Origin: Helicobacter cetorum
GTDB lineage: Bacteria > Campylobacterota > Campylobacteria > Campylobacterales > UBA6016
Assembly: GCA_022729705.1 (NCBI GenBank)
Contig: DZAX01000010.1
Location: 5,037-69,036, forward strand
Length of the DNA: 64,000 nt
Reading direction: 5' to 3'
Below, in pieces: positions 1-62,288 of the stretch. Position numbers and translations under genes: made by a program. The notes below the pieces were generated by a model. It did not search any database. It was not told the origin of the DNA and saw nothing but the letters and a program-made list of their open reading frames with translations. Within the stretch, counting starts at the first letter, position 1. Each line of letters begins with the position of its first letter.

Positions 1-620
1 ATTGGTTCCGCCCTCGGAAATAGAAACTCTCTAGTTTTATTGCCAGTGCTTCCGGTAAAAACAATAAAACCATTATCAATCTCTCTAATATATCCACCTA
101 TAGCCTTATACTTGTCAAATGCGGTTGCTCTTTGTTTTTTGATCGCCTCCACCTGTTGTTTATCAAAATATTTTGCCATATCGGTGTATTTGATTCTTGT
201 GTTGCCCTCCGTGACTTTTCCAAGATTCTGAATACTCCATTTTTGACCATCCCTTAATAACCAACCCATATAAATTTTATTTGTATCCATTGCTTTTGCT
301 TTATATGACGGGTGGTTCAAATCTCTGTACGAAAGAGTTTTATCTTGCAATCGTAGTTTTGAAAAACTCAAAATCTCCAAAACATTTCTTACCATCCCCT
401 TAACGCTAGAAGACGGTATATAATACTCTCCGTTATGCTGGCAAAACTGCTCCTGATTGGCGTGGTCACGGATAAAAATCGGACTTTTGGCAGTGATGGT
501 TATCTCTACCTCCCCGCTCTCGCCGTCTTCAAACGGTATATCGTGGCTTACCTGTTCGCCCCACGATGGATAAAAAACCTCTTTGTTTAGCGGGATAAAA
601 TTATACGGCGCCGTTATCAT
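1..620 (-). CDS. CRISPR-associated RAMP (Cas7-like) protein, 5' part only (206 codons visible; gene runs off the left edge)
   Basis: Absent from the ORF track because it has no stop in the window. Manual minus-strand translation from ATG 620-618 gives MITAPYNFIPLNKEVFYPSWGEQVSHDIPFEDGESGEVEITITAKSPIFIRD...GEYYIPSSSVKGMVRNVLEILSF..., open to nt 1. The APYNF(I/V)PL start and the IPSSSxKGxxR loop are RAMP signatures; from memory it resembles the family labelled TIGR03986. Its ATG overlaps the stop of the upstream Fic gene (ATGA). Confidence 0.7.
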   Translation of the reverse strand, partial: MITAPYNFIPLNKEVFYPSWGEQVSHDIPFEDGESGEVEITITAKSPIFIRDHANQEQFCQHNGEYYIPSSSVKGMVRNVLEILSFSKLRLQDKTLSYRDLNHPSYKAKAMDTNKIYMGWLLRDGQKWSIQNLGKVTEGNTRIKYTDMAKYFDKQQVEAIKKQRATAFDKYKAIGGYIREIDNGFIVFTGSTGNKTREFLFPRAEP

Positions 621-1399
621 CTTTTGCTCCTTGTGGCGTCTAGTAGCTCTTTTGAGTTTTTGTATTGGTCTTTAAAAAATTCTCTCAACTCGTAGTATGC
701 TTGGTTTTTTTCCAGTAACGTTTTTGTGTTTTGGTCAAGCGGTTTTGCCGATAGGTTGTAGTCTGATAGAAGCTTGATATACTCGTCTCTGTGGTTGCAA
801 TCAATAATAATCGGTAGAAAATTACTCTTTAAAAGCGGGATATTTGACATTAACCTCCCGACTCTGCCGTTACCGTCAAAAAAAGGATGAATAGCCGTAA
901 AAGCTATATGCATATCCGTATATACATCTACGCATGTATCAAAACTTTCACACTCTTTTAGCTCCCCAAACTCTCTAAACCACAAGCCCATAAGATGCCG
1001 TATATCTTGCGGGTCTGGATACGGAAAATACTCGGCTTTGCCGCTTGGCAGTTTGACGTATCTCCCGTTTTCTATCGCCTTATATTCGCCGATTGGACAA
1101 TCTATATCTATGACCAAATTGGTTTGAACCGCTTTGTGCATCAAAAACAGATCCTCTTCACCTATAACCTCTTTTTTTATCAGCCCATAAATTAGATCAA
1201 TAGCTCTAGCATGCCCCAAAACCTCGTTGTGTTCGATTATTGATTTGCCCTTTACAGTCAATCCGTACTGAATGATGTATGCCGTATCGCCTAGCGAAAT
1301 AGTGTTTCCCTCTATCGCATTTGAGTTGTATGTCCAATTAATTTTTAGTATCTCTTTTGAGGCTATCGTATCTCGGCTTGTTAGTTTTTTCTCGCTCAT
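617..1399 (-). CDS. Fic-domain protein (predicted AMPylase) with canonical active site and N-terminal auto-inhibitory motif
   Basis: HPFFDGNGRVGRL matches the Fic motif HxFx(D/E)GNGRxxR. N-terminal S-N-A-I-E-G-N matches the inhibitory (S/T)xxxE(G/N) motif. ATGA overlaps with both neighbouring genes. Confidence 0.9.
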   Translation of the reverse strand: MSEKKLTSRDTIASKEILKINWTYNSNAIEGNTISLGDTAYIIQYGLTVKGKSIIEHNEVLGHARAIDLIYGLIKKEVIGEEDLFLMHKAVQTNLVIDIDCPIGEYKAIENGRYVKLPSGKAEYFPYPDPQDIRHLMGLWFREFGELKECESFDTCVDVYTDMHIAFTAIHPFFDGNGRVGRLMSNIPLLKSNFLPIIIDCNHRDEYIKLLSDYNLSAKPLDQNTKTLLEKNQAYYELREFFKDQYKNSKELLDATRSKR

Positions 1400-1785
1400 T
1401 TCTCAAACCCTGCAAAAACTACTTTTTTGAGTTTTAAAACTTTCATATTTTCGCACAGCGGGTCAACTTCTGGCTCCCATATTTGAGCCATTTTGACTTT
1501 TAATCCATTGATTACATGGTATGTTTGCTTGTCGCTCTCTACGACATTCGATATATCGGTTTTTGAAACCAGCCAATCGCTATTTATCTGTTTGATAGCT
1601 ATAGACTCGGTACCGTTGCAAAAATGAGCTTCATATACAAAACCGCTTTTGACTACTAGGTTTATATCGCTATGCTCCGCCCAAATATCCGTTATCCGCC
1701 TATCGCTCATTTGGACATAACCTTGATAACTTTTGAGGGTATTGATAAAATCGATAATACCCTGTTGCGTGTATTTATTTTCCAT
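1396..1785 (-). CDS. Hypothetical 129-aa protein between the two Fic-fold genes
   Basis: ORF with a 4-nt overlap downstream and an 11-nt overlap upstream, so it sits in the same translational chain. I recognised no motif. Confidence 0.6.
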   Translation of the reverse strand: MENKYTQQGIIDFINTLKSYQGYVQMSDRRITDIWAEHSDINLVVKSGFVYEAHFCNGTESIAIKQINSDWLVSKTDISNVVESDKQTYHVINGLKVKMAQIWEPEVDPLCENMKVLKLKKVVFAGFEK

Positions 1786-2542
1786 TATTTGCTTCCCTGA
1801 TTAAGCTATCCATTTTTTCATAACATCTGATAAAAAACTCTTTTGATTTCGTATAGACTCCGCTTTCGTAATACTCCAAAATTCCGTCGATATAAAGCGA
1901 TATGTGCTCCTCTTTGGGGATAAGAAGCATTTTATCGTCGCATTTGAGCGATAGATTTAGCATAGTTCTAGCCGTTTGCTTGTTGACATCTACGAAATAT
2001 TGCAGATACGCTAGGTTGTTGTGTAGGTACAAAGCCTTGTCAAATGGGTTTTTGATAAGCTCAAATATACTCAAAAGTCTATCTAGTTCACTATCCAGCG
2101 TCAAACTATCATTTGGCGGCACATAGTCGCTCCCTTTGATTAGTACCCCTTTTTTTCGCACGCATCCCAAATCTTCGTCGTCTACTAGGTCGTCGGCTAG
2201 TATTTGATGGATGGTTCTTATTTTGTGGCGGTTGATATGGCAATCGTCGCTTAGTATGTATCTAAACGCTTTGTTTAGGTTTATCAGCATTTTAGCGTCG
2301 GCATAGCTTTTGCCGCCGCTTGTTTTGCCATATTCTAGTAGTGTGAGCGCATCGGCTTTTGAATAGGTATTACCTTCTATTTTTGCGCTTGTGTAGACAA
2401 AATCAAAACCGAATTTTTCTACTAGATTTTTGTTTTGTAAAAAATTTCTTAGCGATAGGTTTGAGTTTATTTTTTCGAGTATTTCAAGCTCAGTATCGCT
2501 AAATATTGGCGAATAGACTAAAAAATCAGGATTATAGTTCAT
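1775..2542 (-). CDS. Fic/Doc-fold protein with degenerate active-site motif (likely catalytically inactive)
   Basis: N-terminal YTSAKIEGNTYS is a typical Fic-family (S/T)xxxE(G/N) element. At the core-motif position it reads QYFVDVNKQTAR. This is Doc-like (HxFxDxNKRxA), but the catalytic His is Gln and the Arg is Gln. I place the start at MNYNPDF (ATG 2542-2540, ATGA overlap with the upstream RAMP stop). The Arg-rich 35-aa extension in the track ORF lies inside the upstream gene. Confidence 0.7.
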   Translation of the reverse strand: MNYNPDFLVYSPIFSDTELEILEKINSNLSLRNFLQNKNLVEKFGFDFVYTSAKIEGNTYSKADALTLLEYGKTSGGKSYADAKMLINLNKAFRYILSDDCHINRHKIRTIHQILADDLVDDEDLGCVRKKGVLIKGSDYVPPNDSLTLDSELDRLLSIFELIKNPFDKALYLHNNLAYLQYFVDVNKQTARTMLNLSLKCDDKMLLIPKEEHISLYIDGILEYYESGVYTKSKEFFIRCYEKMDSLIREANNGK

Positions 2543-3789
2543 AATTTTTTCCCATTTTTTAGCGCCTCCCCGATAAATACGCCGTGCCCTTTTGTAGTAG
2601 CGCCGCCGAGTGGAAGCATACCTGTGGCTACATCTTTTAAAGCGCATTCAAAGGCTTTTGCTATGGTTTCATCATCAATTTTTTCAAGCAAGATTTCTAT
2701 CTCGTACCCTCCGTCGTCGGCGATTGTCTTCTCTTGAAACAACGCCCCATCTATCGCCCCACCCGTGAAACGATCTATGCTCACATGGTCAAAAGTTTTG
2801 GTTTGTTTGGTTTCATCAAAAGCTTTAAAACAGTCAGATATGAGGATTTTCCCTTTTGAACCGTCGATATTTTGTTTTGAGTTTTTAGCCTCTCCAAATA
2901 TTTCAGGTATTGAGTTTCTAGCTTCCGGATTGTCGATATAAAATTTCTTTAGTAGATTATAATGATATGTTGTTCGATGAGCCAAAGCGCCCTTTATGCC
3001 GCTAGCGGGTATGAGTATTTGTTTGCCCGTTAGCTTTTGCGCTTTATAATCTACCGTTTGTTCAAATACAGGTGTCATATCGGCTTCATCATCGCCAAAA
3101 CCGCCGCCAAACATAAAAAAATCGTCCGGTTTGATTTTGAGAGTATACTTTGTATGTTTTGTAGTGCTTCCTTGCGGAGTATATGTTTCGCCGATTGTCT
3201 GATTGAGAGAGCTTGAGTATTGCCCCAAATTGACAAGGGCTGTTTTTATCTCAATAACTTTTAGCTTCCCAAACCCTCTAGTGCTCCCGCCGCCTAGCCT
3301 AAACGTAGGATTTGATAGTAAATCCAATATCTCCGTGAAAACCTCTTTTTGCTCTTCGATAAACTCTATGCTAAATTTAAAACGGCTCCCTTTGTAGATC
3401 ACCTCTTCGTCAAATTTTGCGCCGTTTTCGGCTGTTCCTTTTGAATTTATCCTCACATGCTCACGCACTGGAAGATTGTCAAATATCTTTAAAAAATCTG
3501 ATTTTTCCGATAGTAGCTCCTCGCATACATCGCCTTTGTTGTCGAGCAGTAGGGCGTTTGAGATGATAACCTTTGAACCTTCTCCGTCTTCGCCATCCTG
3601 AAAACCAAAAAGTTTTTTATCGCCAAAATCTTTTCTCAAAACTCCAGCTATAGAGGTTCCCAGTATCATAGGCAAACCGTTCCAATCTTTTTGTGCGGGA
3701 GCGTCTTGCAAAAAAACCATTGCGTTACTACCTACCCTCAAAGGCGTATCGGCTTCGACGATGATATGGGCTATGTGTCTTTTAGTCAT
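2539..3789 (-). CDS. CRISPR-associated double-RAMP protein (two Cas7-like modules fused)
   Basis: Two copies of the RAMP loop (ILGTSIAGVLRKDF and IPASGIKGALAHRT). Two C-terminal glycine-rich loops (FRLGGGSTRGFGKL and LPLGGATTKGHGVF). A Csm3/Cmr4-like HVSIDRFTGGAIDGALFQEK segment. Confidence 0.8.
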   Translation of the reverse strand: MTKRHIAHIIVEADTPLRVGSNAMVFLQDAPAQKDWNGLPMILGTSIAGVLRKDFGDKKLFGFQDGEDGEGSKVIISNALLLDNKGDVCEELLSEKSDFLKIFDNLPVREHVRINSKGTAENGAKFDEEVIYKGSRFKFSIEFIEEQKEVFTEILDLLSNPTFRLGGGSTRGFGKLKVIEIKTALVNLGQYSSSLNQTIGETYTPQGSTTKHTKYTLKIKPDDFFMFGGGFGDDEADMTPVFEQTVDYKAQKLTGKQILIPASGIKGALAHRTTYHYNLLKKFYIDNPEARNSIPEIFGEAKNSKQNIDGSKGKILISDCFKAFDETKQTKTFDHVSIDRFTGGAIDGALFQEKTIADDGGYEIEILLEKIDDETIAKAFECALKDVATGMLPLGGATTKGHGVFIGEALKNGKKL

Positions 3790-5152
3790 TTTTGCCTCCC
3801 ATTTTCATAGCCAGTAGTTTGGTAAAATTTTGCTTATTTATTTTGTGATTTTCGATGGCGCTCATCAGCGTAACGACTTGACTATCTTCCCATTTTTTTG
3901 AACCGCTACCGATATATGAATTGATTTTTTCTATATAGTCGCCTTGATTGCTAGAGGCTATTGAGCGGATATTTCCCCATTGAGAGGGTTTGATATTTGA
4001 CAAAGTGGATTTTTTATGCGTGTCGACAAAAACGGCAATTTCATCTGCTATAGCTAGCATATCAATATTTGCATTGTGACGATTTGCCAAAAACTGCACA
4101 GCCGTATTTTCAAAATTTTCGGTTATCCTTTTTCGCTTATCTTTTTTCGCCTCTCCGCTTGGTTTTGGCGCAAATTTAAACTCTTTCTCCGTCAAAAAAC
4201 TAGGATTGACAATTATCTCCCCAAACCCCTCGCAAAGATACGCCCCAACGCCGTTTTTGATTTGCTCCAACTGCTCTTTTGTAATATTTTTTAGGACTAT
4301 TACGCTCCCTTTGTTAACACATATTCTCTCGCAATCTCTGGTTTGTCGTTTGTTATTGTATGGGGTAAATGTACTGGTTCGGATTTGTGTTTTTTCATGG
4401 ACAACTTCGGCACCATCGCAAAGATGTGTTAAATCATAAGTTGGATTTCCACATTCATCAATCAAAGCCAAACGGCTATTGCAATACAAAACGACTTCGT
4501 CAAGTTTTGGGTTTTTTTCGTTGAGATTTTCTTTTTTTTGATTTTTTAGATATGTGATTTTTACCGAGCCGTATTCTGCTGATTTTGATCTGCCCAGTCT
4601 ACCGCTTGACTCCAATGTCTTGATAAGGAGCGCTTCATCATCGCTTTTTATGTCGTCCATTTTGACTGTAAAGCGCCATTTTGACCCTTTTTTTATGGCG
4701 CTGTAGCCGTACATTTGGCTATCCATACTTCGCCTTTTTGTCTTGTCATAAGCCGATTTTTGGGAGTAAACATAATCTACAAATACCTGTTCTTTATTGC
4801 TTGCGATGTAGCCGTTTCGGAGCTGTTTTAGTTGACCTAGCTTTTCAAAATCTTCTTTTTCTAGCTTATGATGGTTATAAATAGGTTCCGACTGGAGCTT
4901 TTTATAAACATGCGAATAAGGTATTTTGTAGGTCATTTTTCCATTCTTTAGGATATGCCCGTCTCCAAACCGGACTTTACCGCTGTGAAATATCTCAAAA
5001 CCATCGCTAAATTCATCATAGTTTTTTGCCACCATCCCCAAAAAGCTAGATCCAGGCACAAAGTCTAATCGATCGATTTTTCCCTCCGTATTTGACGAGG
5101 CGTGGAGGACTATATCGCTCAAAAACTCCATGTCAAACAACAACTCTCTCAT
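3782..5152 (-). CDS. CRISPR-associated RAMP protein (possibly Cas5/Cmr3-like) with a C-terminal ~130-aa helical extension
   Basis: N-terminal FVPGSSFLGMVAKNY RAMP loop and a G-rich CEGFGEIIVNP loop near residue 310. Overlaps both neighbours (8 nt and 4 nt). Confidence 0.65.
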   Translation of the reverse strand: MRELLFDMEFLSDIVLHASSNTEGKIDRLDFVPGSSFLGMVAKNYDEFSDGFEIFHSGKVRFGDGHILKNGKMTYKIPYSHVYKKLQSEPIYNHHKLEKEDFEKLGQLKQLRNGYIASNKEQVFVDYVYSQKSAYDKTKRRSMDSQMYGYSAIKKGSKWRFTVKMDDIKSDDEALLIKTLESSGRLGRSKSAEYGSVKITYLKNQKKENLNEKNPKLDEVVLYCNSRLALIDECGNPTYDLTHLCDGAEVVHEKTQIRTSTFTPYNNKRQTRDCERICVNKGSVIVLKNITKEQLEQIKNGVGAYLCEGFGEIIVNPSFLTEKEFKFAPKPSGEAKKDKRKRITENFENTAVQFLANRHNANIDMLAIADEIAVFVDTHKKSTLSNIKPSQWGNIRSIASSNQGDYIEKINSYIGSGSKKWEDSQVVTLMSAIENHKINKQNFTKLLAMKMGGKND

Positions 5153-5676
5153 TTTGCCCCCTCAATCACAAATTCGCACCTGCCAAGCCCACGGTTGCGA
5201 TTTAGCCCCATCCGTTTTATCATCTCTAGCGATTTTTGCATAGCCTCAAAATACCTTTGATTTGGTATATCTCGTATCTCGCCGTATAAAGTAAGCGGTA
5301 TGACAACCTCTATCTCCCTAAGGCTTTTATCCTCCGCAATGCCGTTTTCTCCGATTTTTGTGGAGGCGATAATGTCGTAGAGATTGTCTTGCAAGTCATT
5401 GCTTTTAATCTGTTTTGCGGCACTTTCATCTAAAACGGCGTTTGAAAAATAGCACTCCCCAGTTGCCGCCCCTTCTTCACCAAAACACTCCCTAACAAAC
5501 TCACAATCCTCCAAAAGCTCCGCCATCTCCCTAACTAACCCCTTGATAATTTTTCCAGCCACATACGGCAATTCGTCGCCGTCTTTTATCACAGAGCTAT
5601 CCAGTTTTGCCCCTGCGCTAAGACCGCTAGAGATGTGCCAATAATCATAGAATTTGAGCTCGTATTTTAGAATCAC
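5149..5676 (-). CDS. Small RAMP protein (minimal Cas7/Csm3-like, 175 aa)
   Basis: DSSVIKDGDELPYVAGKIIKGLVRE loop and C-terminal MGLNRNRGLGRCEF glycine-rich loop. GTG start overlapping the cas10 stop (TAGTG). Confidence 0.75.
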   Translation of the reverse strand: MILKYELKFYDYWHISSGLSAGAKLDSSVIKDGDELPYVAGKIIKGLVREMAELLEDCEFVRECFGEEGAATGECYFSNAVLDESAAKQIKSNDLQDNLYDIIASTKIGENGIAEDKSLREIEVVIPLTLYGEIRDIPNQRYFEAMQKSLEMIKRMGLNRNRGLGRCEFVIEGAK

Positions 5677-7082
5677 TATTTTACCTCCGTAACAGATAAG
5701 ATTTGGAGCACGTCATAGATTGGGGTTTTTCTCATACCGTCCTTGTCAATAATGAGTTCTTCATTTGAGAGTTTGGTTTTGAAGTTTTTAAGATTTTTAT
5801 CCATAATGCAACTACTCCACTTACTGTTTTGAGAAGCCATTTCATTAATTCTTTTGAGCAAATTATCGGCGTACGTTTGGCTTTTGTGCAGCCCTCCTAT
5901 CCACTCTCTTAGCCTGCTTATCGGGCTACCCTCGCATCTATAAGCCTCTACGATATGGATAAAATCTTGTATTTTTGGCTCTCCGTCTTGACTCAAATAG
6001 TACGGACCAAAATCACATCTGATTGTCTCTTGATCATTTATGATAGTAAGCTCATCGGCGATAAATTTTTCCCAACTCTGAAAATTTGAACTTTGAATAT
6101 TGTGAAACATAAGACTAGACGGAGCCGGATTGTTTGTATTTTCGATGAGTTTTTTGGCGTGTTTTTTTGTGGCGACGCATAGCGCTTCTGCTAGACTCAC
6201 AGCATAGTGAAACGGGTATTTTTCGTTGCAGTAGGCAATTCCGGCGCAAGCGGTCAAACCGCCATTACCTAATTCTTTCGTCTCATTTTCAAAGTTGGCT
6301 AAAAAGTTTTTCGTAAACGCTAACGCATTATTAGCATTACAAATGACCGTCAAATCATCTCCGCCCAAAACAACTTCTCTTATATCCATCGTATCGTCTC
6401 TGGCTTCATCAAATGCTTTTCTTGTGGCAATATCAAGTTTTTTAGAAAACTCATTAAGGGGCATTTTAAGATTTGGAATAAGCTGACCCAAGCCATTTCC
6501 GTCGGCATGTATAACCGCTATTTTCCCTTTGCCATTTGAAAAATCTGAAATATCGACAAACTCCCGATTTCTGGGATTTTTTTTATAAAATTCTTCGTTG
6601 ACTTTTCTTTTTAATGACGAAGCCTTATCTAGTCTGTTACCGTTTTTATCTATCTCAAAAAGCGCTCTCGCCGTCTTAGGTGCTAACTCCATAATGCCGA
6701 TACTCAAATCAAGCGGAATAGAGGGTTTGTTTCGTTGGATTTTCAGCCTTTTTTCAAGCTCAAGTATCTCCTCTGTTGTTTGCTTTTCGCCGGACATTTT
6801 CACAACCGCTTGACTAATAGTGATCCCGCAAGCTTTTTGCATAATAAGCTTTGGAAATTCCATTACGACCCTCTCAAGGCTACTTCTGTCCTCAAAAATC
6901 GCCTTTATATTTCCCGCCGCATTGAGCAATATCTTATCTTCGGCGATATTTTCGAAATCAATAAACTCCCGCTCCAAGCTCTTAACTATCTCACTAGCCC
7001 CGACAATCTCTTGCAATTGATTGGTCTTAAATATAAAATCCTGAATCCCCTGAACCGACGCCCCATACAGATATTTACTCAT
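5676..7082 (-). CDS. cas10: Cas10-like large subunit, short form without HD domain, cyclase palm with GGDD
   Basis: Begins directly with YLYGASVQGIQDFIFKTNQLQEIVGASEIV, a Cmr2-type palm-1 signature. Contains VIHADGNGLGQ and VLGGDDLTVICNAN (GGDD). About 468 aa from MSKYLY (ATG 7082-7080), which overlaps the cas6 stop as ATGA. Confidence 0.85.
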   Translation of the reverse strand: MSKYLYGASVQGIQDFIFKTNQLQEIVGASEIVKSLEREFIDFENIAEDKILLNAAGNIKAIFEDRSSLERVVMEFPKLIMQKACGITISQAVVKMSGEKQTTEEILELEKRLKIQRNKPSIPLDLSIGIMELAPKTARALFEIDKNGNRLDKASSLKRKVNEEFYKKNPRNREFVDISDFSNGKGKIAVIHADGNGLGQLIPNLKMPLNEFSKKLDIATRKAFDEARDDTMDIREVVLGGDDLTVICNANNALAFTKNFLANFENETKELGNGGLTACAGIAYCNEKYPFHYAVSLAEALCVATKKHAKKLIENTNNPAPSSLMFHNIQSSNFQSWEKFIADELTIINDQETIRCDFGPYYLSQDGEPKIQDFIHIVEAYRCEGSPISRLREWIGGLHKSQTYADNLLKRINEMASQNSKWSSCIMDKNLKNFKTKLSNEELIIDKDGMRKTPIYDVLQILSVTEVK

Positions 7083-7912
7083 TCCTTCTCCTCCAGCTTT
7101 ATCTCCCCAAGCCCAAAAACACAAGACTTCCCAACCCCAACTATCTCACCCAGCCTCAAAGCCGTCGCCATCTCCTCTTTCATATCTGCGCACTCTATAG
7201 CGCCCACATATCCGCCAAGTCCCATTTTTGTTTTTTGGCGATTGCTGTACCTCTCTAGATCCAAAAACTCTAAGTTGGCTTTTTCGTTTTCTCTAGCGTA
7301 CTCATGGCGTCTTCTTTTGGCGCCCTCGCCTTTTAGCTCGTCGTAGCGTCTTTGCGCCGATAGGGCTATGCTAAGCGCGGTTATCTCCTCTTTTTTTACC
7401 ATTTTGCCGTCTGATTTTAGTCTTAGAGGAGTTTTTAGTGTGATTTTTGAGATTTTTGAGGCGGTTTTGGGGTCAAATAGCGCGGGTTTTGAGTCTTTGA
7501 GGTCGTATCTTCCGTTTTTATATATGTCGGCGCCGTTTGCTTTTACGCTCTCTATCTTTGGCGTTTGCCTCTTTGCTCCTAAACCGATTGTCGTTATGGC
7601 GGAGTCTAGCGCCGATATGACGTACGGCGCCTTGTCGCACGCCTCTTCGTATAGATATATCCCAAAACTCCAAGAAGAAGCCGGCATATCTATACAAAAG
7701 CGGTACCCATGCGCCCCCTCGCGCTTCTCAAAAAAATCCCAATAAAGACAAGTAGAAGAAGCAAAACACCCCTCGCACTCTTCCTTAGGATTAATACAAC
7801 ACACTTTTTTGAGACTATGCCCAAAAGCGCCGCGAAGAGCCGAACCAATAAAAAAAGGAGCCTCACCGCCCAAAAGCGCAAAATCAAGACGCAAATATCT
7901 AAGAGCGGTCAT
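7079..7912 (-). CDS. cas6: Cas6-type RAMP endoribonuclease with a Cys-rich insert
   Basis: N-terminal IGSALRGAFGHSLKKVCCINPKEECEGCFASSTCLYWDFFE and C-terminal G-rich loop GVGKSCVFGLGEI. First gene of the operon. Confidence 0.75.
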   Translation of the reverse strand: MTALRYLRLDFALLGGEAPFFIGSALRGAFGHSLKKVCCINPKEECEGCFASSTCLYWDFFEKREGAHGYRFCIDMPASSWSFGIYLYEEACDKAPYVISALDSAITTIGLGAKRQTPKIESVKANGADIYKNGRYDLKDSKPALFDPKTASKISKITLKTPLRLKSDGKMVKKEEITALSIALSAQRRYDELKGEGAKRRRHEYARENEKANLEFLDLERYSNRQKTKMGLGGYVGAIECADMKEEMATALRLGEIVGVGKSCVFGLGEIKLEEKE

Positions 7913-8044
7913 AAGCGTAAAGCCTCTTTTGTATAATTTTTACAAAACTACATAATATGTAAAAAGCATACTATTTTTTTACTTTATCGGTGTTTCCATC
8001 GTTCCCACCCTCTGAGTGAGAACGCATAGTAAAGTCAGGTCTAG

Positions 8045-8328
8045 GTGTTCAAATTAGCCGCAGCCGTACTAGATGCGATACTAAGCGAGTATATAGACGA
8101 AGCCCTTAAGTGCGCATTGTATGAGATTATCGAAGACGAAGAGCCGTATTACGGAGAAATACCGTAAATAAAGGGCGTATGGGTAGCCGGAAAACATTAG
8201 AAGAGTGCAGAGCAAACCTAAAAGAAACGCTTGATAACTGGATACTTTTGGCAGTTCGCCGCTCACTGCATATTCCGCCGATAAACGGCTATGAAGTTCG
8301 TGTGCCACAAGCAGAAGAAGCAGTCTAA
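8045..8328 (+). pseudogene. HicB-family antitoxin remnant (in-frame stop plus frameshift)
   Basis: Reads ...LSEYIDEALKCALYEIIEDEEPYYGEIP, then TAA at 8165-8167, then IKGVWVAGK. A 1-nt frame change in the A-run near 8191-8194 is followed by TLEECRANLKETLDNWILLAVRRSLHIPPINGYEV. The pattern matches a HicB family as I remember it. Confidence 0.6.
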
Positions 8329-8521
8329 TGTCCCCCTCTTTGCGCTCGATGTCGCCAAAAGAGCTTGTTGCAAAATTGCGCATTTTGGGTTTCGGCGGTC
8401 CTTATGCAGGAGGCAAGCATCTGTTTATGACAAAAGATGATTTGCAACTGACATACACCAAGACGAGTTAAAAGAGATGTGGGAAACGCAAAATTTTCAC
8501 AAAATAGAACCATTAGAGTAA
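8328..8521 (+). pseudogene. HicA-family toxin remnant (internal deletion/frameshift)
   Basis: MSPSLRSMSPKELVAKLRILGFGGPYAGGKHLFMTKDDLQLT... stops prematurely at 8469-8471. The C-terminal ELKEMWE piece continues in another frame to 8521. Confidence 0.5.
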
Positions 8522-8524
8522 ATT

Positions 8525-8695
8525 ATGAAACTTAGAGATTATAAAATAATTGACGGCTATACGTTTAGCTTAATCTTTGAAGACGGTACAAATAAGGTTA
8601 TTGATTTGTCACCCTTGATACAATTCAAAGTTTCAAAATCAGAATTTTTCATAACATCCGTCTGCCGATTTTGCAACTCATTGTTTTTCTCATAA
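8525..8695 (+). pseudogene. DUF2442-like small ORF, probably truncated (56 codons)
   Basis: MKLRDYKIIDGYTFSLIFEDGTNKVIDLSPL resembles the N-terminal half of DUF2442 proteins. The remainder diverges. Confidence 0.35.
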
Positions 8696-8830
8696 AGTTC
8701 ATCGTTTCATAAAAATTGTAGCTTTTTAGGAAATAAGTTTTGGCGAAAGATTGTTTGGAAATTTAGGGGCATTATAGGCTCAATTACTACTTAATTTTGC
8801 TAAAATAATCTCAAAAATTGGGTGGCGTAA

Positions 8831-10540
8831 ATGAAAAAATATTTCTTGGCGGGCGTTGGAGCCGTTGTAATTGCGGTAGCTCTTGTTTTTAGCTTTAATT
8901 CAAAAGCGAGCAAAGCGACGGATGCGAATGTCTCTAGTTTTTATATTGCGACATACAACGTCGAAAATCTCTTTGATATGGTTCCAAACGGTAGCGAGTA
9001 TCCTGAGTATATACCAAATTTCAAAGGGTGGGACGAAGATTCGCACAAAGCAAAACTTGCAAATGCGGCGCAAGTAATAAAAGATATGAACGCCGATATT
9101 GTCGTGCTTCAAGAGATAGAAAATGAAAACGCCCTAAAAGAGTTGCTCTCAGAGATAAAAAAATCAGGAGTCGTATATCCGAACTTTATAATCACAAAAA
9201 ACGAAAAGACGGCGGTTCAAAATGCGCTTATATCCAAATTCAACATACTATCCCACAAAGAGCTTGACATTGCCGGACAGTATAGAGATAGACCGATACT
9301 AAAAGCGACTTTGAGCGTTGGGGGTGCTGAGCTTATAGTATATGCAAACCACTGGAAGGCAAAAACGGGACCTGAGAGCAAAAGAATCGAGTATGCAAGC
9401 GTTTTGGCGCAAGACATAAAGAGTCTATCTGGTGACGCTGATTATGTTGTAATGGGTGATTTAAACTCAAATTACAATGAGATGGAGACTTTCCAAAATA
9501 ACACAAAACTAAACAATACAAACGGTCTAACCGCCATAAACCACATCATCAAAACCGCCAAATCAGCCCCAAACGAGAAGCCGCAACTAGCGACCAAAGC
9601 AGATGTTATGGCAAATCAACACAGCGAATATCTCTACAATCTATGGCTTGAAATCCCAAAGTACGAGAGAGTTAGCGAATGGTTTGGAAAAGAGAGAAAC
9701 ACACCGGACAACATCATTGTCCCAAAAGCGATGTTTGATAGAAAAGGTATATCGTATGAGGATGAAAGCTTTAAGATATTTGCGCCCTCATATCTACTAA
9801 AAAACGGTAGAGCCTTTAGATGGGAGGGTAAAGGAAAATCAAAAACCCTTAGCGTACCGCAAGGCTACTCCGACCATCTTCCTTTGTTGGCAAAATTTAG
9901 AATCGGCGCTTTTGAGTCAAAAGACGACCCAAAAGCGCCTGAGCAAAAAAGTCCGGGAGTGTTGGCTCCGCACAAAGAGAGCCCAAAAACACAGCTAAAA
10001 CCAAAAGCGGCGGAGCCGATAAAAACCGTCAACATATCTGATTTGTACGGCATGGACGGCTCTGTAGACGCGCTTATCAAAAACGCCGTAGTTATCCACA
10101 AGCATTTTAACGATGCGGTACTAAAACAAAAAAACGGCAGAGCGGTTTTTGCCTACAACGCCCCCGCCGATATGGAGATTGGCGGCGTATATGACGTAAG
10201 AGTCGGTAAAGTCGAGGATTATCACGGACTAAGAGAGATAAAACGGATAATCGACCACAAAAAGAGCGGCAAAGCAGACCCGTCAGAGCTTATGCTAAAA
10301 TCCGCTACAGACCTAACGGACAAATCTCTGCAAAATGAAGTAATTAGCGGCATAAGCGGGCTTGTCAGCAAGGGTAAGTTTTTGTACAACAACGGCAAAG
10401 AGATAAAAATATACTTCAAAGACAAAGCGCTTCGCCCAAAAAATCTATCAAAAATCACGCTAAAATCAGCTCATCTTAGCTTTTACAGTGAGCCTCAAAT
10501 CGTCATTTACCAACCAAGCGACTTTGAGTTAACAGAGTAA
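8831..10540 (+). CDS. Secreted endonuclease/exonuclease/phosphatase (EEP) family nuclease with a Pro/Lys linker and C-terminal OB-like domain (ExeM/NucH-like)
   Basis: Signal-peptide-like N-terminus. EEP motifs YNVENLFD, VVLQEIEN, GDLNSNYN, SDHLPL. GGTGG Shine-Dalgarno upstream. Confidence 0.8.
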   Translation: MKKYFLAGVGAVVIAVALVFSFNSKASKATDANVSSFYIATYNVENLFDMVPNGSEYPEYIPNFKGWDEDSHKAKLANAAQVIKDMNADIVVLQEIENENALKELLSEIKKSGVVYPNFIITKNEKTAVQNALISKFNILSHKELDIAGQYRDRPILKATLSVGGAELIVYANHWKAKTGPESKRIEYASVLAQDIKSLSGDADYVVMGDLNSNYNEMETFQNNTKLNNTNGLTAINHIIKTAKSAPNEKPQLATKADVMANQHSEYLYNLWLEIPKYERVSEWFGKERNTPDNIIVPKAMFDRKGISYEDESFKIFAPSYLLKNGRAFRWEGKGKSKTLSVPQGYSDHLPLLAKFRIGAFESKDDPKAPEQKSPGVLAPHKESPKTQLKPKAAEPIKTVNISDLYGMDGSVDALIKNAVVIHKHFNDAVLKQKNGRAVFAYNAPADMEIGGVYDVRVGKVEDYHGLREIKRIIDHKKSGKADPSELMLKSATDLTDKSLQNEVISGISGLVSKGKFLYNNGKEIKIYFKDKALRPKNLSKITLKSAHLSFYSEPQIVIYQPSDFELTE

Positions 10541-10581
10541 ACCAAGCAATATTATTGTCCAGTTTCACCACATTATGGTCG

Positions 10582-10603
10582 CTGTTTAGTCCCCTCAACT
10601 TCA
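10582..10603 (-). repeat. Solo copy of an IS-end-like motif (TGAAGTTgAGGGGAcTAAACAG on the minus strand)
   Basis: Matches the right terminal sequence of the IS481-like remnant at 41232-41253 with 2 mismatches. Confidence 0.55.
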
Positions 10604-10760
10604 TTAGGCCGGTATCTTTTGCATTTTGAGTATAGAACTACTGCTATTATTAGGAATGAAATAGTTCAACAAGTGATAGCAAAACTCAAAAATATAGAGC
10701 CTCATAAATTTGCCAGTTTAAATAGAGATAATATAAAAAACGTAACCACTCACCTACCCA

Positions 10761-11216
10761 CTAAAAAGCAGGAATTTTACCAATAAGTGGCATAAAAGGC
10801 TTTCCCTGCATAGCATCTAAAAGCGCTTGCATAATATTAACCCCGTTCTTCTTGGCAGTGAGAATATAGGAGTAGATATTCATAAAGATTCTACCTCCTT
10901 TTTGAGACATAAAACATCCTGATATTTTCTCTTTTACTTTCATCATCCGCAAACCCCGTTCTGCTGCATTGTTGGTAAAAGGTACAGTAAAGTCTGTTGC
11001 GAATCTAAGTGTCTCATCTTTGTACTTTATCAGTCTATCCAAAAGGTTCTTGGCAAAGGTTTGCTTGATCCTACCTCTTTTTCCAGCTTCTTGTTGATTT
11101 ATCGTATGGTAAACACTAGCTGATGTAACAATAGATATAATACCCCAAAAAAAAGAACTGTCCTCTGGAGGCAGTGCGTCAAGCATGGCGGAGAGCATTT
11201 GCGTCGCTGTTGTCAT
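10761..11216 (-). pseudogene. IS66-family transposase C-terminal fragment
   Basis: VPFTNNAAERGLRMMKVKEKISGCF...YSYILTAKKNGVN is the conserved C-terminal IS66 transposase region. Only about 150 of roughly 500 aa are present. Confidence 0.75.
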
Positions 11217-16856: not shown

Positions 16857-19800
16857 ATGTATAGTAAATTTTTTATAAACAAGCCGGTGCTCTCTGCTGT
16901 TATAGCCATAATTATTATGATTTTGGGAATTACGGCGATTAAGAGTCTGCCTATATCACAATTTCCAAACCTAACACCGCCAACCGTGGTCGTAACAGCT
17001 TCATATCCCGGCGCCGATGCAGAGACTATCGCAAACAACATCCTAACCCCGCTTGAGGCTCAAATCGCCGGAGCGGACGGACTTATGTATGTAAACGGCA
17101 AAGCCTCCGCCGCGACTGGTACGGCAAGTATTACGTGTACTTTTAATATTGGCGTAAATCAAGATTTGGCGGCGGTGGAGATACAAAACCGTATCAATCC
17201 CGCCCTTGCCTTGCTACCTCAAACTACAAGAGATTTAGGGATTAGCGTCCAAAAAAGAACCTCTGATATTTTGCTTATCTCAGCTATTACATCCCCCGAT
17301 GGAAGCTTTTCTGATACGGATATAAGCAACTACATCTTGACAAATATGCTAGATGAAATCAAAAAAATTCCCGGTGCCGGAAGGTCAATGATTTTTGGGC
17401 AACGAGACTACGCTATCAGAGTCTGGCTAGACCCCGACAAAATGGCAAAACTGGGCGTTACAAGTTCGGATGTATCCCTTTCGATAAAAGACCAAAATAT
17501 ACAAGTAGCCCCAGGTAGGCTTGGGCAAGCTCCGACAAAAGACGACCAGATGTGGACGATGCAGCTAACGAGCAAAGGTAGATTCTCCACGCCTGAGGAG
17601 TTTTCAGAAGTTATCATCAGATCAAACCAAGACGGCTCCGCAATTCGTCTAAAGGACGTGGCAAGAGTAGAGCTTGGAAGTCAAAACTACGAGTACTTCG
17701 GGCGCGTAAAAGGCAAACCGGCGGCTATGATAGGAATATTCGCCGACGTAAACGCAAACGCACTTGATACGGCGGACGCCGTCCACAAAAAGATGGAGGA
17801 GCTATCCAAAAAGTTTCCTCCCGGAATAGAGTACAAAATCCCTTACGATACGACGGATTTTGTGCGAATATCTATTCAAGAGGTTGTTAAGACGCTGTTA
17901 GAGGCTATTCTTCTAGTTAGCCTTATTATCTATCTGTTTTTGCAAAGCTGGAGAGCGGCTCTTATCCCCATACTATCCGTTCCGGTATCGCTCACGGGGG
18001 CTTTTATCGGAATGTATCTGCTTGGTTATTCCATCAATACGCTCACACTCTTTGGACTGGTGCTTGCAATCGGAATAGTCGTGGACGACGCTATTGTTGT
18101 TATTGAAAATATGGAGAGGATACTTCAAACCGAAAAGCTCCGCCCAAGAGAAGCCGCTATCAAGGCTATGACGCAAGTCTCAGGTCCCGTAATCGCGATA
18201 GTTCTTGTAATGTGCGCCGTCTTTATTCCCGCCACTTTTATGGGCGGTATGACCGGACAACTCTACAAGCAGTTTGCGGCGACAATCGCCATATCGGTCA
18301 TCTTTTCCGGTTTTATGGCTATCTCGTTTGCGCCCGCTATCGGAGCTTTGATTTTAAAACAACATCACAAAGAGCCGGCTAGATTTTTTAGATGGTTTAA
18401 CGCCAAATTTGCAAAGATGACCGACAACTATGTAAAACGCTCCGGTTGGATGATAAGAAAATCGGCTATTGTGTTTGTAATCTATCTATCCACATACGGT
18501 TTTATATACTTCTTCAACAAAACCTTACCGACGGCGTTTGTGCCGATGGAAGATCAAGGCTATTTTATTACCAGTATAAATCTACCGGACGGCGCCTCGG
18601 TCAATAGGACAAAAGAGGTCGTAAAAGAGGTTGAGGCGATACTAGCAAAAGAAGAGGCGGTATCCACATACACGGCTATCACCGGACTCAACATCATGAC
18701 GTTTTCGCAAGAGCCAAACTCAGCCGCTGTGTTTGTAAGGCTAAAGCCGTGGAGCGAGAGACCGACAAAAGCTCTAAGTCTTTTTGGAACGCTTAGAAGC
18801 GTGGGATCAAAATATGGAGCGATAAAAGAGGCGAATGTCATCGCAATGCCGCCGCCGCCTATACGCGGCATGGGGCCATCTGATATGTTTAACTTCCATC
18901 TATTGCAAATGGGCGACGCCAATATGACAAAAATGGCAAACTCTACAAACAACTTTTTAAAAGCGCTCAAAGACGAGAAGAGTCTTAAAATGTCGTTTTC
19001 GACGATGAGAGCGGACACCCCTACCCTACTTGTAAATGTAGACAGGGAAAAAGCAAAATCGTTTGGCGTCTCTATCGCCGATATATTTGGGACATTGCAA
19101 TCAACTATTGGCTATATGAACATAAACCAGTTTGATAAAAACGGCAAAACATATTGGGTTCAAGTCCAATCCGAAAAAGAGTACAGAAGCAAACCGGAAG
19201 ACATAGGCAAAGCGTGGGTTCGCTCGTCATCCGGCAAAATGCTTCCGCTAAGAAATTTTGTAACCGTATCACAATCAAGCGCACCCTCAACCATAGAGCA
19301 CTTTAACGGCGCTTTGGCGACTACTATCATGGGTTCTCCAGCGCAAGGATACAGCTCGGGAGATATTATAAAAATAGTTGAAAATTTGGGCGACACGATA
19401 CTGCCGACGGGAACGACATACGACTGGGACGGCATCTATCTACAAGAAAAATTTGTAGGTTCCAAAACTCTTATTATTATGGTGTTTGCCCTCTCTTTGG
19501 TGTATCTGATTTTGGCGGCTCTGTATGAAAAATGGATACTTCCAATATCTATTATGCTGGCTGTTCCATATGGGATTATGGGCGCATACACGGTGGTTTG
19601 GCTCATACCGTTTTTAAATAACAACGTCTTTTTCCAAATAGGCTTGCTGACTCTTATAGGACTATCGGCAAAAAACGCCATTTTGGTTGTAGAGTTTGCC
19701 GAGGAGCAGAGAAAAGCGGGTAAAAACATCTATGATGCGACAATGGAAGCGGCAAGACTAAGGTATAGACCGATGATGATGACCTCTGTGGCGTTTTTGG

Positions 19801-60077: not shown

Positions 60078-60260
60078 TTGTTTTGGGGGGCGTGGTTGAA
60101 AATATTGTATACAGGCGGACAAAAAAGCGGCAAAAGCCGTCTTGCTGAAGCTAAAGCACTATCGCTAGTCAAAAGCCAAAAACCTTATTATGTCGCGACT
60201 AGCGAAGCGATGGATGCTGAGATGATAAAATTGATTTTAATAAAAATTCGGAGTCACTAA
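60078..60260 (+). pseudogene. cobU: cobU/cobP (adenosylcobinamide kinase / guanylyltransferase), 5' remnant only
   Basis: LKILYTGGQKSGKSRLAE...YYVATSEAMDAEM matches the CobU P-loop N-terminus (about 45 of roughly 175 aa). It then switches to AT-rich sequence and stops at the Fic ATG (TAATG). Confidence 0.7.
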
Positions 60261-61543
60261 TGGCATACATAAATATATTAAAAGAGTTTGCCGATTACCC
60301 AACAAGCGATAAAGAGTGGGTTAGATATTTCACAATATCGAACTACTTTACAGAAAATGAGATGGAATATCGTCGTAAAAGAGTAGATGAAAATAGTTGT
60401 AATTTTGAGAACATTATTGAAGAAGTTAAAAAGTATAGAGCAGAACAAAAAAAAGTTATTTTTGAGTACAAAAACAAAAAATTTATGCTTTGCGAAACAA
60501 AAAAACTAAAAGACTCTGTGGCGACAATGAAAGAGTTTTATAAAAGCATCGAATATCATTTTAAGGACAGGTTTAACAATAAGCTTATTGTTGATTCTTT
60601 AATACTTGAGGCGTTTTCTTCTTCCTCCATAGAAGGGGCGCATAGTACAATCAAAAGAACCAACGAGCTTGTTGTCAAAAAAGAAGAGCCAAAAGACAAA
60701 AGCGAAAAAATGATTTTAAATAACTACGAAGCCCTTGATTTTTTGCGTAAAAAAAACGACGACTTAAGTAGCGAGTTTGTATGCGAAATCCACAAAATAG
60801 TTTCAGCAGGTACGCTAGACGAGAATAAAGATGAGGGAGTATACAGAACAGAATCTGTAGAGATAATGAATGACAAAGGCAAAGTAATCTTTTCTCCTAC
60901 GGCAAGCATAGTTGAAATGCGAAACATGATAAATAAACTTTATGAGTTTTTATCAGATGACGACTTTCAAACACCTATTGAAAATATATACAAAGCGATA
61001 GCGTTTCACTTTATCTTTAGCTATATCCACCCTTTTATGGACGGAAACGGTAGAACCGTGCGGGTACTATTTACATATATGCTCAAAAAATACGGCTTCG
61101 ATATGTTTTATTTTATATCGCTTTCAGAGGTAATATACAAACCAAAAAATATCAAAAACTACTACGAGGCATTTGTGCAAGTCGAGCGCAGTGAGACAAA
61201 CGGCGTACTTGATATGACATATTTTTTTTACTACATGACCCATGTTATGCAAGAGGGGATAGGGATATTAAAAGATAGGGTTAAAAACTATATGCGAGAG
61301 GATTTTACCATTGATAAAGTAAAGAAAAGTTCGCTTGACTTAACGCCTAGGCAAAAGCTAATCATAAAAATACTATCCAACTCTAAGCGTTCTTTTATGC
61401 AAACATCTGATGAAATAGCAAAACAAATCAAAGTATCAAAGCAAACAGCTGTTAAGGATTTAAACTATCTTATACAGTTTGAGCTAGCTAGAGTAAAAAA
61501 AATAGGGCGAAACAACTTCTATAGCCTGAGCATAGAATTATAG
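60260..61543 (+). CDS. Fic-domain protein (427 aa) with a C-terminal winged-helix DNA-binding-like domain
   Basis: HPFMDGNGRTVRV canonical Fic motif. SSSIEGAHS inhibitory-type motif. C-terminal LTPRQKLIIKIL...TSDEIAKQIKVSKQTAVKDLNYL is HTH-like. Visibly AT-rich. Confidence 0.9.
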   Translation: MAYINILKEFADYPTSDKEWVRYFTISNYFTENEMEYRRKRVDENSCNFENIIEEVKKYRAEQKKVIFEYKNKKFMLCETKKLKDSVATMKEFYKSIEYHFKDRFNNKLIVDSLILEAFSSSSIEGAHSTIKRTNELVVKKEEPKDKSEKMILNNYEALDFLRKKNDDLSSEFVCEIHKIVSAGTLDENKDEGVYRTESVEIMNDKGKVIFSPTASIVEMRNMINKLYEFLSDDDFQTPIENIYKAIAFHFIFSYIHPFMDGNGRTVRVLFTYMLKKYGFDMFYFISLSEVIYKPKNIKNYYEAFVQVERSETNGVLDMTYFFYYMTHVMQEGIGILKDRVKNYMREDFTIDKVKKSSLDLTPRQKLIIKILSNSKRSFMQTSDEIAKQIKVSKQTAVKDLNYLIQFELARVKKIGRNNFYSLSIEL

Positions 61544-61547
61544 GTTT

Positions 61548-62288
61548 ATGATAAAACACCACATAGCGGGCTTTCGCATAGCGTTTTCGATGATGACGGT
61601 ATTGCCGTTTTTCAGGCTCCATGAGTTTAAGACGGGGTGCAACGGATATGCAGCGGCTTATTATCCCATGATTGGGCTGTTTTTGGGCGTTCTTATCTAT
61701 ACCATTTATGCTGTATTCCACGGATTTTTGCCCGAAAATTTCCTTAGAGTAGGGCTTTTTGCGCTTTTTGTCTCTCTTTACGGTGCGCTTCATTTGGACG
61801 GTTTTGTGGATACGATAGACGGACTTTTTGCGCCGCCTCATCGCGCTCTTGATGTGATGAAAGAGCCTACTATCGGGGCGATGGGGGCGATATATGGGTT
61901 TTTATTTTTATCGCTCAAACTCGCCGCTTTTTTGGCTCTTGCGGACTTTGCGCTTTTTTTGCTTGTTCCTATGTTGTCTCGTTTTGGCGGGACGCTTGCG
62001 ATATACGGCTTTTCATATGTGCGTCCAAGCGGTATGGGGTATATGGCAAAAAAAGAGCTGACAACGCCTCTTTTTATATACTCCGCCGCTCTTGTATGCG
62101 CTGTTATCGCCCTTGTCAATCCGCTGTTTTTTGTGTTTTTGGCGGTTGCTATTGCGGCGTCCATTTGGGTTTCAAAATATCTAGTAAAGCGCTTTGGCGG
62201 TCTTAGCGGGGATATGTACGGGTTTGTTATTGAGGTTGTGGAGTTTGTTTTGCTTTTTGCTATTGTTGTATTTGAGTCTTGCAAGTAG
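61548..62288 (+). CDS. cobS: Adenosylcobinamide-GDP ribazoletransferase (cobalamin synthase)
   Basis: Polytopic membrane protein. ...MMTVLPF..., HLDGFVDTIDGL, GGLSGDMYG. Confidence 0.85.
   Translation: MIKHHIAGFRIAFSMMTVLPFFRLHEFKTGCNGYAAAYYPMIGLFLGVLIYTIYAVFHGFLPENFLRVGLFALFVSLYGALHLDGFVDTIDGLFAPPHRALDVMKEPTIGAMGAIYGFLFLSLKLAAFLALADFALFLLVPMLSRFGGTLAIYGFSYVRPSGMGYMAKKELTTPLFIYSAALVCAVIALVNPLFFVFLAVAIAASIWVSKYLVKRFGGLSGDMYGFVIEVVEFVLLFAIVVFESCK

Follow-up and report, generated by a model that had tools for sequence, protein, structure and literature searches.

The closest described relatives of the locus treated here are the type III-D1 CRISPR-Cas systems and the Synechocystis III-Dv effector complex (PDB 8s9t/8s9u), which share with it an HD-less cas10, a csx10-type cas5, cas7-2x, csx19, and a TIGR03986 cas7 in the same order (PMC11026444). 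In III-Dv the operon runs cas10, cas7-cas5-cas11, cas7-2x, csx19, and cas7-insertion, and Csx19 is a core subunit that is required for assembly (PMC11026444). Here we analyze the first 7912 positions of a 64,000-nucleotide stretch of Helicobacter cetorum contig DZAX01000010.1 (the whole stretch is the window in what follows), whose gene content identifies them as a type III-D (III-D1-like) CRISPR-Cas interference operon on a Campylobacterales chromosome. As in other III-D modules, Cas6 and CARF-HEPN (Csx1/Csm6) genes are encoded alongside; however, cas7, cas5, and cas7-2x are separate genes, whereas III-Dv has a cas7-cas5-cas11 fusion, neither an array nor cas1/cas2 is visible in or near the window, and two Fic genes, FicA and FicB, sit one on each side of csx19. 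We hypothesize, with a probability of about one half, that FicA and FicB are co-transcribed, embedded toxin or defence-candidate cargo at two insertion-tolerant junctions of an operon whose cas module itself is ordinary.

The second group of described systems to which the locus can be compared consists of defence operons that host nested genes. In the guilt-by-embedding survey (Payne et al., 2024), PDC families owe their definition to their embedding in operons of the Hma, BREX, DISARM, and type I restriction-modification kinds; 96.7% of the genes so embedded have the same orientation as their host operon, and a genomic sink, co-regulation, and PrrC-like back-up were discussed as possible meanings of embedding (10.1101/2024.01.29.577857; PMC12988326). 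The text of that survey contains no mention of CRISPR (10.1101/2024.01.29.577857). DUF1016, RhuM, and Fic/DOC genes have also been found between hsd genes (PMC9881135), and a census of type III accessory genes includes Csx19 as a core gene and a PD-DExK family, with no Fic family (PMC6546367). In the searchable literature, we came upon no account of Fic genes that lie in cas operons.

Nine minus-strand open reading frames span the operon (Table 1), and independent gene calls on 11 public contigs that carry an identical locus agree with them. Genes were assigned by profile searches of Pfam, NCBIfam, and PADLOC models, in which the Cas6, HD-less GGDD Cas10, and RAMP assignments of an initial annotation, made from the letters of the sequence, all hold; the type III effector module that it described proves to be specifically III-D, with the features that mark this type all present, i.e., an HD-less cas10 with GGDD, csx10, csx19, and several cas7 genes including the insertion type of TIGR03986. 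A motif scan locates the GGDD of Cas10 at residues 240–243 (encoded at 6354–6365) and finds no HD dipeptide within the first 150 residues. The TIGR03986 cas7, which leaves the window, is complete on an identical contig that extends further left (L001; L numbers are our labels for contigs and loci), where it has 688 amino acids (aa) and matches TIGR03986 at 1.4e-86, with 292 bits against a cut-off of 161; it also shows a weak sequence match to the TIGR03986-family PDB chain 8s9t_E. The composition, which the initial annotation could place in no described type III subtype, is the standard III-D cas order plus two facultative genes.

Table 1. Features of the type III-D operon at the left end of the window, in the order of transcription, with the values of their profile matches.
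Feature	Position	Strand	Length	Profile match	Remark
sigma-70-like promoter match	7936..7963	-			just upstream of cas6; 9/12 positions, with TG; weak consensus match only
cas6	7079..7912	-	277 aa	Pfam CRISPR_Cas6 1.7e-10; PADLOC Cas6 4e-50	first operon gene
cas10, III-D type	5676..7082	-	468 aa	PADLOC Cas10d 6.3e-165; Pfam Cas10-Cmr2_palm2	full length on the 441-position PADLOC model
small cas7 (III-D)	5149..5676	-	175 aa	PADLOC Cas7_IIId 8e-69; Pfam RAMPs	
csx10/cas5 of type III-D	3782..5152	-	456 aa	PADLOC Cas5_IIId 6.9e-148; TIGR02674 Csx10 (weak)	full length on the PADLOC model
cas7-2x, double Cas7 fusion	2539..3789	-	416 aa	PADLOC Cas7_IIId 1e-158; Pfam RAMPs 4.5e-38	RAMPs match in two stretches
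FicA	1775..2542	-		Pfam Fic 4e-9	at the cas7-2x/csx19 junction
csx19	1396..1785	-	129 aa	TIGR04423 3.2e-19; PADLOC Csx19 3e-30	
FicB	617..1399	-	260 aa	Pfam Fic 2e-10; PADLOC PDC-S04 7.6e-29; SoFic 2e-18	at the csx19/cas7 junction
TIGR03986 "insertion" cas7	1..620	-	N-terminal 206 codons	TIGR03986 2.3e-30 (fragment)	

On re-reading, the nine genes and the eight overlaps between them match the initial annotation exactly. Five junctions are ATGA overlaps (7079–7082, 5149–5152, 2539–2542, 1396–1399, and 617–620), cas10 and the small cas7 overlap in TAGTG (5674–5678), csx10 and cas7-2x in ATGACTAA (3782–3789), and FicA and csx19 in ATGGAAAATAA (1775–1785), and a Shine-Dalgarno-like purine run precedes every start in the chain. 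A chain of nine overlapping genes, each with a strong profile match, cannot be ascribed to chance. The overlap of starts with stops implies translational coupling of the Fic and cas genes and bears out the initial annotation, which had placed the Fic genes inside the chain rather than beside it. No promoter or terminator belonging to the Fic genes themselves was detectable; promoter-like sites in 1–8900 are not enriched (19 found, 20.2 expected from shuffles), and no terminator-like site was found on the coding (minus) strand around the operon. The GC content of the Fic genes (0.37–0.40) falls within a range similar to that of the cas genes (0.37–0.47), and both GC and GC3 are like those of their neighbours. 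Regarding Csx10/Cas5, we noted in addition that its C-terminal ~120 residues appear helical on visual inspection and may represent a small subunit of the Cas11 type fused to it, comparable to the Cas7-Cas5-Cas11 of III-Dv, and that the operon has no separate cas11 gene.

Both profile and modelled fold identify the 129-aa gene between FicA and FicB, to which the initial annotation had given no identity, as csx19, which encodes a core subunit of III-D. It matches TIGR04423 in NCBIfam with 69 bits against a cut-off of 40. A sequence-profile search of the PDB gave no match; however, an AlphaFold model built from 30 homologues (pLDDT 94.7) has convincing PDB matches only to 8s9u_B and 8s9t_B (probability 1.0 and 0.99, TMq 0.60 and 0.57), both of them a chain of ~180 residues from the type III-D effector complex of Synechocystis, and the next match in the fold search has a probability of just 0.12. 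Further, relatives keep csx19 between cas7-2x and the TIGR03986 cas7 also when no Fic gene is present. Because the middle gene is core Csx19, there is no three-gene cassette as had been proposed, but rather one Fic insertion upstream and a separate one downstream of it; the canonical FicB and the degenerate FicA of that proposal both stand.

The reading of the Fic genes as cargo draws on a census of the two junctions in related loci. A search for Csx19 homologues gave 80 metagenomic loci, 75 of them distinct at 97% csx19 nucleotide identity, onto which the proteins of the window were mapped. The core order cas6-cas10-cas7-csx10-cas7-2x-csx19-cas7 is kept in these loci. The cas7-2x/csx19 junction is empty in 49 of 64 assessable cases, and otherwise holds FicA (2), a RhuM-Doc gene (7), a DUF1016 nuclease (3), or the decayed remnant of a DUF1016 nuclease (3), whereas csx19/cas7 is empty in 50 of 66 and otherwise holds FicB (11), RhuM-Doc (2), a nucleotidyltransferase with its partner (MNT-HEPN-like; 2), or ORF6N (1). 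The RhuM-N plus Fic/DOC cargo is ~330 aa long with the motif HPFSDGNKR (PDC-S23, 5e-120), the YhcG/DUF1016 cargo is a PD-(D/E)xK nuclease (PDC-S02, 8e-128), and the ORF6N cargo matches PDC-S05 (1e-58). Counting inserts of more than 300 nucleotides in the raw loci, 15/67 were found at cas7-2x/csx19 and 9/63 at csx19/cas7, compared with 0/21, 0/32, 0/34, and 0/38 at the other four core junctions (Fisher p = 4e-8).

FicA and FicB occur independently of each other: L114 has FicA only, L129, L137, and L142 have FicB only, and the window and L167 have both, while the closest metagenomic relative, L087 (Cas10 67% and Cas7-2x 66% identical), has neither. Cargo in the slots flanking csx19 can decay in place, as seen from the DUF1016/YhcG remnants at cas7-2x/csx19 in L123 (4560–4961), L134 (369–1046), and L136 (848–1234), loci which have FicB downstream. 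The initial annotation had regarded the Fic genes as probable components or effectors of the complex; they are indeed recurrently nested in the operon, but they are facultative and mutually independent, and in sister loci the same slots hold unrelated genes. It had also raised the alternative of a recent selfish insertion, with a promoter of its own, into a cas chain that close relatives carry without it. Most slots are in fact empty, including those of L087, but no separate promoter was found, and the insertion is not a recent one-off (see below).

FicA and FicB share the properties of guilt-by-embedding candidates, in that they are small single genes nested in a defence operon in the same orientation, variably present, and with non-embedded homologues elsewhere. 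The families are also the same, namely PDC-S04 (Fic), PDC-S23 (RhuM-Doc), PDC-S02 (DUF1016), and PDC-S05 (ORF6N/RhuM-N); the difference is in the hosts, which are Hma, BREX, DISARM, and type I restriction-modification operons in that survey, and here a CRISPR-Cas operon with two precise junctions. Taken together, we hypothesize that the junctions flanking csx19 tolerate inserts, with FicA in the upstream and FicB in the downstream slot as two independent optional genes, and that the cargo guild (Fic, RhuM-Doc, DUF1016 nuclease, ORF6N, and MNT-HEPN) would be the same as in type I restriction-modification, BREX, DISARM, and Hma operons. The entire chain would be transcribed from the cas6 promoter. 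FicB would be an AMP-transferase held off by the glutamate of its own inhibitory helix (E30), and might be a toxin of the SoFic or PDC-S04 kind that works by abortive infection or as a second line, without needing the CRISPR RNA (crRNA) complex, while FicA would be enzymatically inactive and at most a binding or regulatory partner.

The enzymatic part of this hypothesis comes from the motifs. FicB has an intact catalytic motif, HPFFDGNGRVGR (encoded at 854–889), which is invariant in the FicB family, and an inhibitory-helix motif, SNAIEGN (encoded at 1304–1324), which aligns with TVAIEGN of FICD and FIC-1; its best PDB sequence matches are FICD/HYPE and Caenorhabditis elegans FIC-1 over residues 22–217, an alignment that spans both the helix motif and the catalytic loop. 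The class II Fic catalytic motif HxFx(D/E)GNGRxxR is present in FicB and absent from FicA, while the class II inhibitory-helix motif (S/T)xxxE(G/N) is present in both. The inhibitory-helix glutamate of class II Fic proteins prevents ATP from binding productively, and their histidine serves as catalytic base. On this basis, and given its intact motif and its own helix glutamate, FicB is predicted to be an autoinhibited AMP-transferase. In the active-site loop of FicA, QYFVDVNKQTAR (encoded at 1967–2002), Gln replaces the catalytic His in a Doc-like NKR context, unlike in other class II proteins, and this change is conserved across the FicA family (366 proteins); with the catalytic His lost, FicA is predicted to be a catalytically dead, FICD-like paralogue. 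It retains the inhibitory-helix motif as SAKIEGN (encoded at 2369–2389), aligned to the FICD motif, is homologous to FicB along its full length (hhalign probability 97.7%, 25% identity), and its AlphaFold model (pLDDT 92.4) superimposes on FICD 4u04_B with TMq 0.80 and a root-mean-square deviation of 2.6 Å.

SoFic is reported to be an abortive-infection AMPylase (PMC12249575), and together with the class II AMP-transferases FICD/HYPE, FIC-1, and CdFic it shares with FicB the Fic core HPFxDGNGRxxR and an N-terminal inhibitory helix. However, FicB lacks the SoFic C-terminal domain and stays far below the equivalog cut-off, and against SoFic structures the Fic core alone aligns (residues 119–211). 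Neither CARF, SAVED, nor any other known sensor domain for cyclic oligoadenylate (cOA) was found in FicA or FicB in Pfam, NCBIfam, and PADLOC, and the model of FicA has a plain FICD-like fold. No adjacent antitoxin gene of the Doc/Phd or VbhT/VbhA type was found either: both genes are flanked by overlapping cas genes, and the inhibitory helix is intramolecular. The window contains a third Fic-domain open reading frame at 60260–61543 (+), directly upstream of cobS (61548–62288), with a length of 427 aa, a Pfam Fic value of 4.5e-18, and ~24% identity to FicB, and the genome thus has at least three Fic paralogues within 64 kb.

More than 1,300 FicB homologues were found, of which the top 120 are 55–91% identical and mostly from Campylobacterota. 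III-D genes stand beside none of the 80 best loci of FicB relatives in GTDB (one genome per species), where the Campylobacterota copies of FicB are stand-alone, for example, between murA and purL. This murA-Fic-purL synteny recurs in L007, L172, and L174, and the resident chromosomal gene may be a source of the cas-embedded copies. Among eight close FicB homologues on long contigs, four are in III-D loci (L167, L169, L170, and L173), one is in a III-A locus (L168), and three are stand-alone. In L168 (1460–11747) the order is cas6, a short cas10, csm2-5, FicB, CARF-HEPN, a DarT-DarG toxin-antitoxin pair, cas2, and cas1, and FicB, which overlaps the stop of csm5, is the last gene of the csm operon and precedes CARF-HEPN. 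More distant relatives of FicB (~40% identity) lie between cas7c and cas4 in type I-C loci of Desulfobacterales (L016, L023, L024, L033, and L040); in L023 (4068–18195) an AbiL/AriA-like ABC ATPase stands with the Fic gene, and cas4-cas1-cas2 and an array of 59 repeats come next. The concern of the initial annotation that the Fic homologues might occur overwhelmingly outside cas contexts is thus partly borne out by the stand-alone members and the 0/80. Stand-alone relatives of FicA are found after aroE (L175, 72% identical) or after a restriction-modification module (L176).

Since the nested arrangement recurs in loci whose Cas proteins are 41–77% identical, it is not a recent one-off insertion. 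In FicB-bearing loci, FicB identity is 59–86%, compared with 41–77% for the Cas proteins, and divergence of FicB correlates with that of the Cas proteins weakly and not significantly (Spearman rho 0.25–0.52). Between the window and L167, Cas10 is 50%, Cas5 43%, and Csx19 59% identical, but FicB 74% and FicA ~78%, the FicA value being for a homologue on a contig of the same length as L167; the lowest Cas identities, of Cas10 and Cas5, alongside one of the higher FicB values point to a Fic history decoupled from that of the cas genes. In a neighbour-joining tree the III-D copies of FicB group next to the murA-purL clade, with a bootstrap of 12/100. No relatives of FicB were found in viral contigs.

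Several points weigh against reading FicA and FicB as independent defence cargo. The matches of FicB to the defence models are modest: for NCBIfam SoFic (NF046030) it reaches 34 bits, where the cut-off is 550, and PDC-S04 is itself an unvalidated candidate family. Because the related loci stem for the most part from a few metagenome projects, the census counts are not independent samples and the proportions are rough. The confinement of inserts to the csx19 flanks could mean interaction with Csx19 or the insertion-type Cas7 rather than tolerance. The narrow FicB clade (at least 59% identity) found in two type III subtypes is tightly cas-coupled and conserved at least as well as the Cas proteins, as would be expected of an accessory protein, while the conserved housekeeping synteny of the stand-alone paralogues could point to regulation of the cell rather than defence.

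Functional coupling of the Fic genes to CRISPR is possible, and the limitation of inserts to the csx19 flanks, together with repeated capture by III-D, III-A, and I-C, keeps coupled models alive. In the general form of such a model, a FICD-like Fic clade would have been recruited repeatedly by these three kinds of operon through functional wiring, giving either an AMPylating output or a guard toxin, with FicA as a pseudo-enzyme regulator; we think this unlikely, though it deserves more weight than either of its two specific versions below.

In the first version, FicB with or without FicA would be a dedicated type III ancillary effector, in which binding of target RNA or the product of Cas10 relieves the autoinhibition, and FicB AMPylates a host or phage protein. 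Besides the translational coupling within the cas chain and the placement of inserts next to csx19 only, this would fit the recurrence of csx19-FicB-cas7 in diverged III-D loci, the III-A locus with FicB between csm5 and a CARF-HEPN gene, and a constraint on FicB at least as strong as that on the Cas proteins. However, the known ancillary effectors of type III with CARF or SAVED domains, which are likewise encoded with type III cas genes, lie alongside the effector operon rather than inside it and have a sensor domain, whereas none is detected in FicA or FicB, and two canonical effectors of this kind (CARF-HEPN, Csx1/Csm6) are already present at the locus. In addition, the slot is empty in ~77% of sister loci and carries unrelated cargo in others, FicB and the Cas proteins co-diverge weakly and not significantly, close paralogues reside at housekeeping loci, and the type III accessory-gene census has no Fic family (PMC6546367). 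We consider a dedicated effector improbable on this balance.

The second version takes PrrC as its model. The PrrC anticodon nuclease of the EcoprrI hsd locus is a latent toxin nested among the core genes of a defence operon and the paradigm of a back-up, and the nesting of FicB can be likened to it. By analogy, the intact III-D complex might silence FicB, e.g., through a contact of Csx19 or the insertion-type Cas7, and anti-CRISPR damage would free the toxin. FicB adjoins a structural subunit that is needed for assembly of the complex, its relatives are nested in three CRISPR-Cas subtypes, and the cargo guild to which it belongs is likewise embedded in restriction-modification and BREX loci, for which PrrC sets a precedent; furthermore, toxin genes within CRISPR-cas loci are described as safeguarding CRISPR-Cas activity (10.1101/2024.10.29.618823). 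Yet PrrC belongs to a different enzyme class, and inhibition of FicB by the host complex would be an analogy to it, whereas FicB has an inhibitory helix of its own; stand-alone copies of FicB exist without a Cas partner, and the mixed cargo at the same slots speaks against a specific protein-protein latch. We give such a guard a similarly low chance as a dedicated effector.

It is also quite doubtful that the Fic genes have no defence role at all, i.e., that resident Campylobacterota paralogues, as FICD-like regulators, merely came to lie at a site of the operon that tolerates them and are kept there by hitch-hiking or mild addiction. The stand-alone genes in murA-Fic-purL synteny and after aroE, the third Fic gene elsewhere in the window, the lack of FicB relatives in viral contigs, the visible decay of DUF1016 cargo in the same slot, and the poorly supported ancestry of the III-D FicB copies (bootstrap 12/100) would all suit this explanation, but the embedded FicB copies are highly conserved with an intact active site, independent capture by III-D, III-A, and I-C far exceeds the neutral expectation given that well under 1% of a genome consists of cas loci, and the families embedded alongside are the ones with which other defence operons are enriched. 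Two further candidates were rejected: FicA as the antitoxin of FicB fails as a general model in that most FicB-bearing loci lack FicA, and a mobile cassette with conserved boundaries around FicB fails in that the flanks are mere ends of neighbouring cas genes and differ in the III-A locus.

The surroundings of the operon also bear on its output. Leftwards on L001, the full TIGR03986 Cas7 is followed by a Phd/YefM-PIN pair, a CARF-HEPN gene, a WYL regulator, a second CARF-HEPN gene, Csx20, and a reverse transcriptase. The first CARF-HEPN protein (Csx1/Csm6) has 401 aa (PADLOC 7e-123; TIGR02221) and the second 447 aa (PADLOC 1e-99). The suggestion of the initial annotation that Fic proteins provide the output instead of CARF-coupled effectors is not supported, since two CARF-HEPN genes, Csx20, and WYL lie directly left of the window. 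With an intact Cas10 GGDD and CARF-HEPN genes, the parts of the usual cOA pathway are encoded at the locus, from which we infer that the pathway may operate there. The Phd/YefM-like antitoxin and PIN toxin between the TIGR03986 cas7 and the CARF-HEPN genes (12582–13177 of L001) are a side observation.

At its end (17910–18305), L001 encodes the N-terminus of a reverse transcriptase (PADLOC CRISPR-associated RT, 3e-29) that matches the first 126 of the 617 positions of an RT-Cas1 model (Cas1_IIIb, 5e-19), so adaptation genes start ~8 kb left of the window. Inspecting the sequence left of position 1, which the initial annotation had advised, thus revealed the start of an RT-Cas1 gene but no array. 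The annotation's remark that no array is in view holds for the whole window: with a tandem-repeat finder, a direct-repeat finder, a k-mer scan, and a pattern derived from the repeats of relatives (GACCCGAY...GGGGATTGAAAC), no CRISPR array was found in the 64 kb, in the 8 kb beyond, or on L001–L003, and tblastn with sequences of related loci gave only chance matches for cas1 and cas2 in the window. Related loci have their arrays at a distance of 1–6 kb from the cas genes, and the repeats of these arrays end in GGGGATTGAAAC. The absence of an array is probably an effect of where the window and the contigs end, and the adaptation genes, perhaps with the array, might lie just past the assembled sequence of L001.

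The host is a Campylobacterales metagenome-assembled genome, as judged by the names given to cluster members of two proteins of the window, and the genes around the operon are chromosomal (nosZ, flagellin, pilT, and acrB). Between cas6 and these housekeeping genes we observed a 569-aa protein of the endonuclease/exonuclease/phosphatase family whose N-terminal hydrophobic stretch resembles a signal peptide (8831–10540, +), and a 151-aa fragment of an IS66-family transposase (10761–11216, -), which in this segment (8831–11216) hint at a mobile or variable region next to the locus. Another contig, L005, carries at 1–1164 a part of cas10 that is 76% identical to the Cas10 of the window, while the rest of the contig is 99–100% identical; such a mosaic suggests that related III-D loci recombine in the population.

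If FicA and FicB are embedded cargo as we favour, a CRISPR-Cas effector operon would host nested toxin or defence-candidate genes in the manner of type I restriction-modification, BREX, and Hma loci. We found no description in the searchable literature of a CRISPR-Cas operon in this host role, with inserts confined to the two junctions around csx19, nor of a single Fic lineage captured by three CRISPR-Cas subtypes. The locus offers a small system for asking whether embedded toxins are co-regulated with the immunity of their host operon, back it up, or are controlled by it, and could show whether Fic proteins of the PDC-S04 type defend against phage. Should the Fic genes be functionally wired to the complex after all, they would represent the first protein-modification arm of CRISPR immunity, and the flanks of csx19 would serve as a docking site dedicated to effector modules that can be exchanged.

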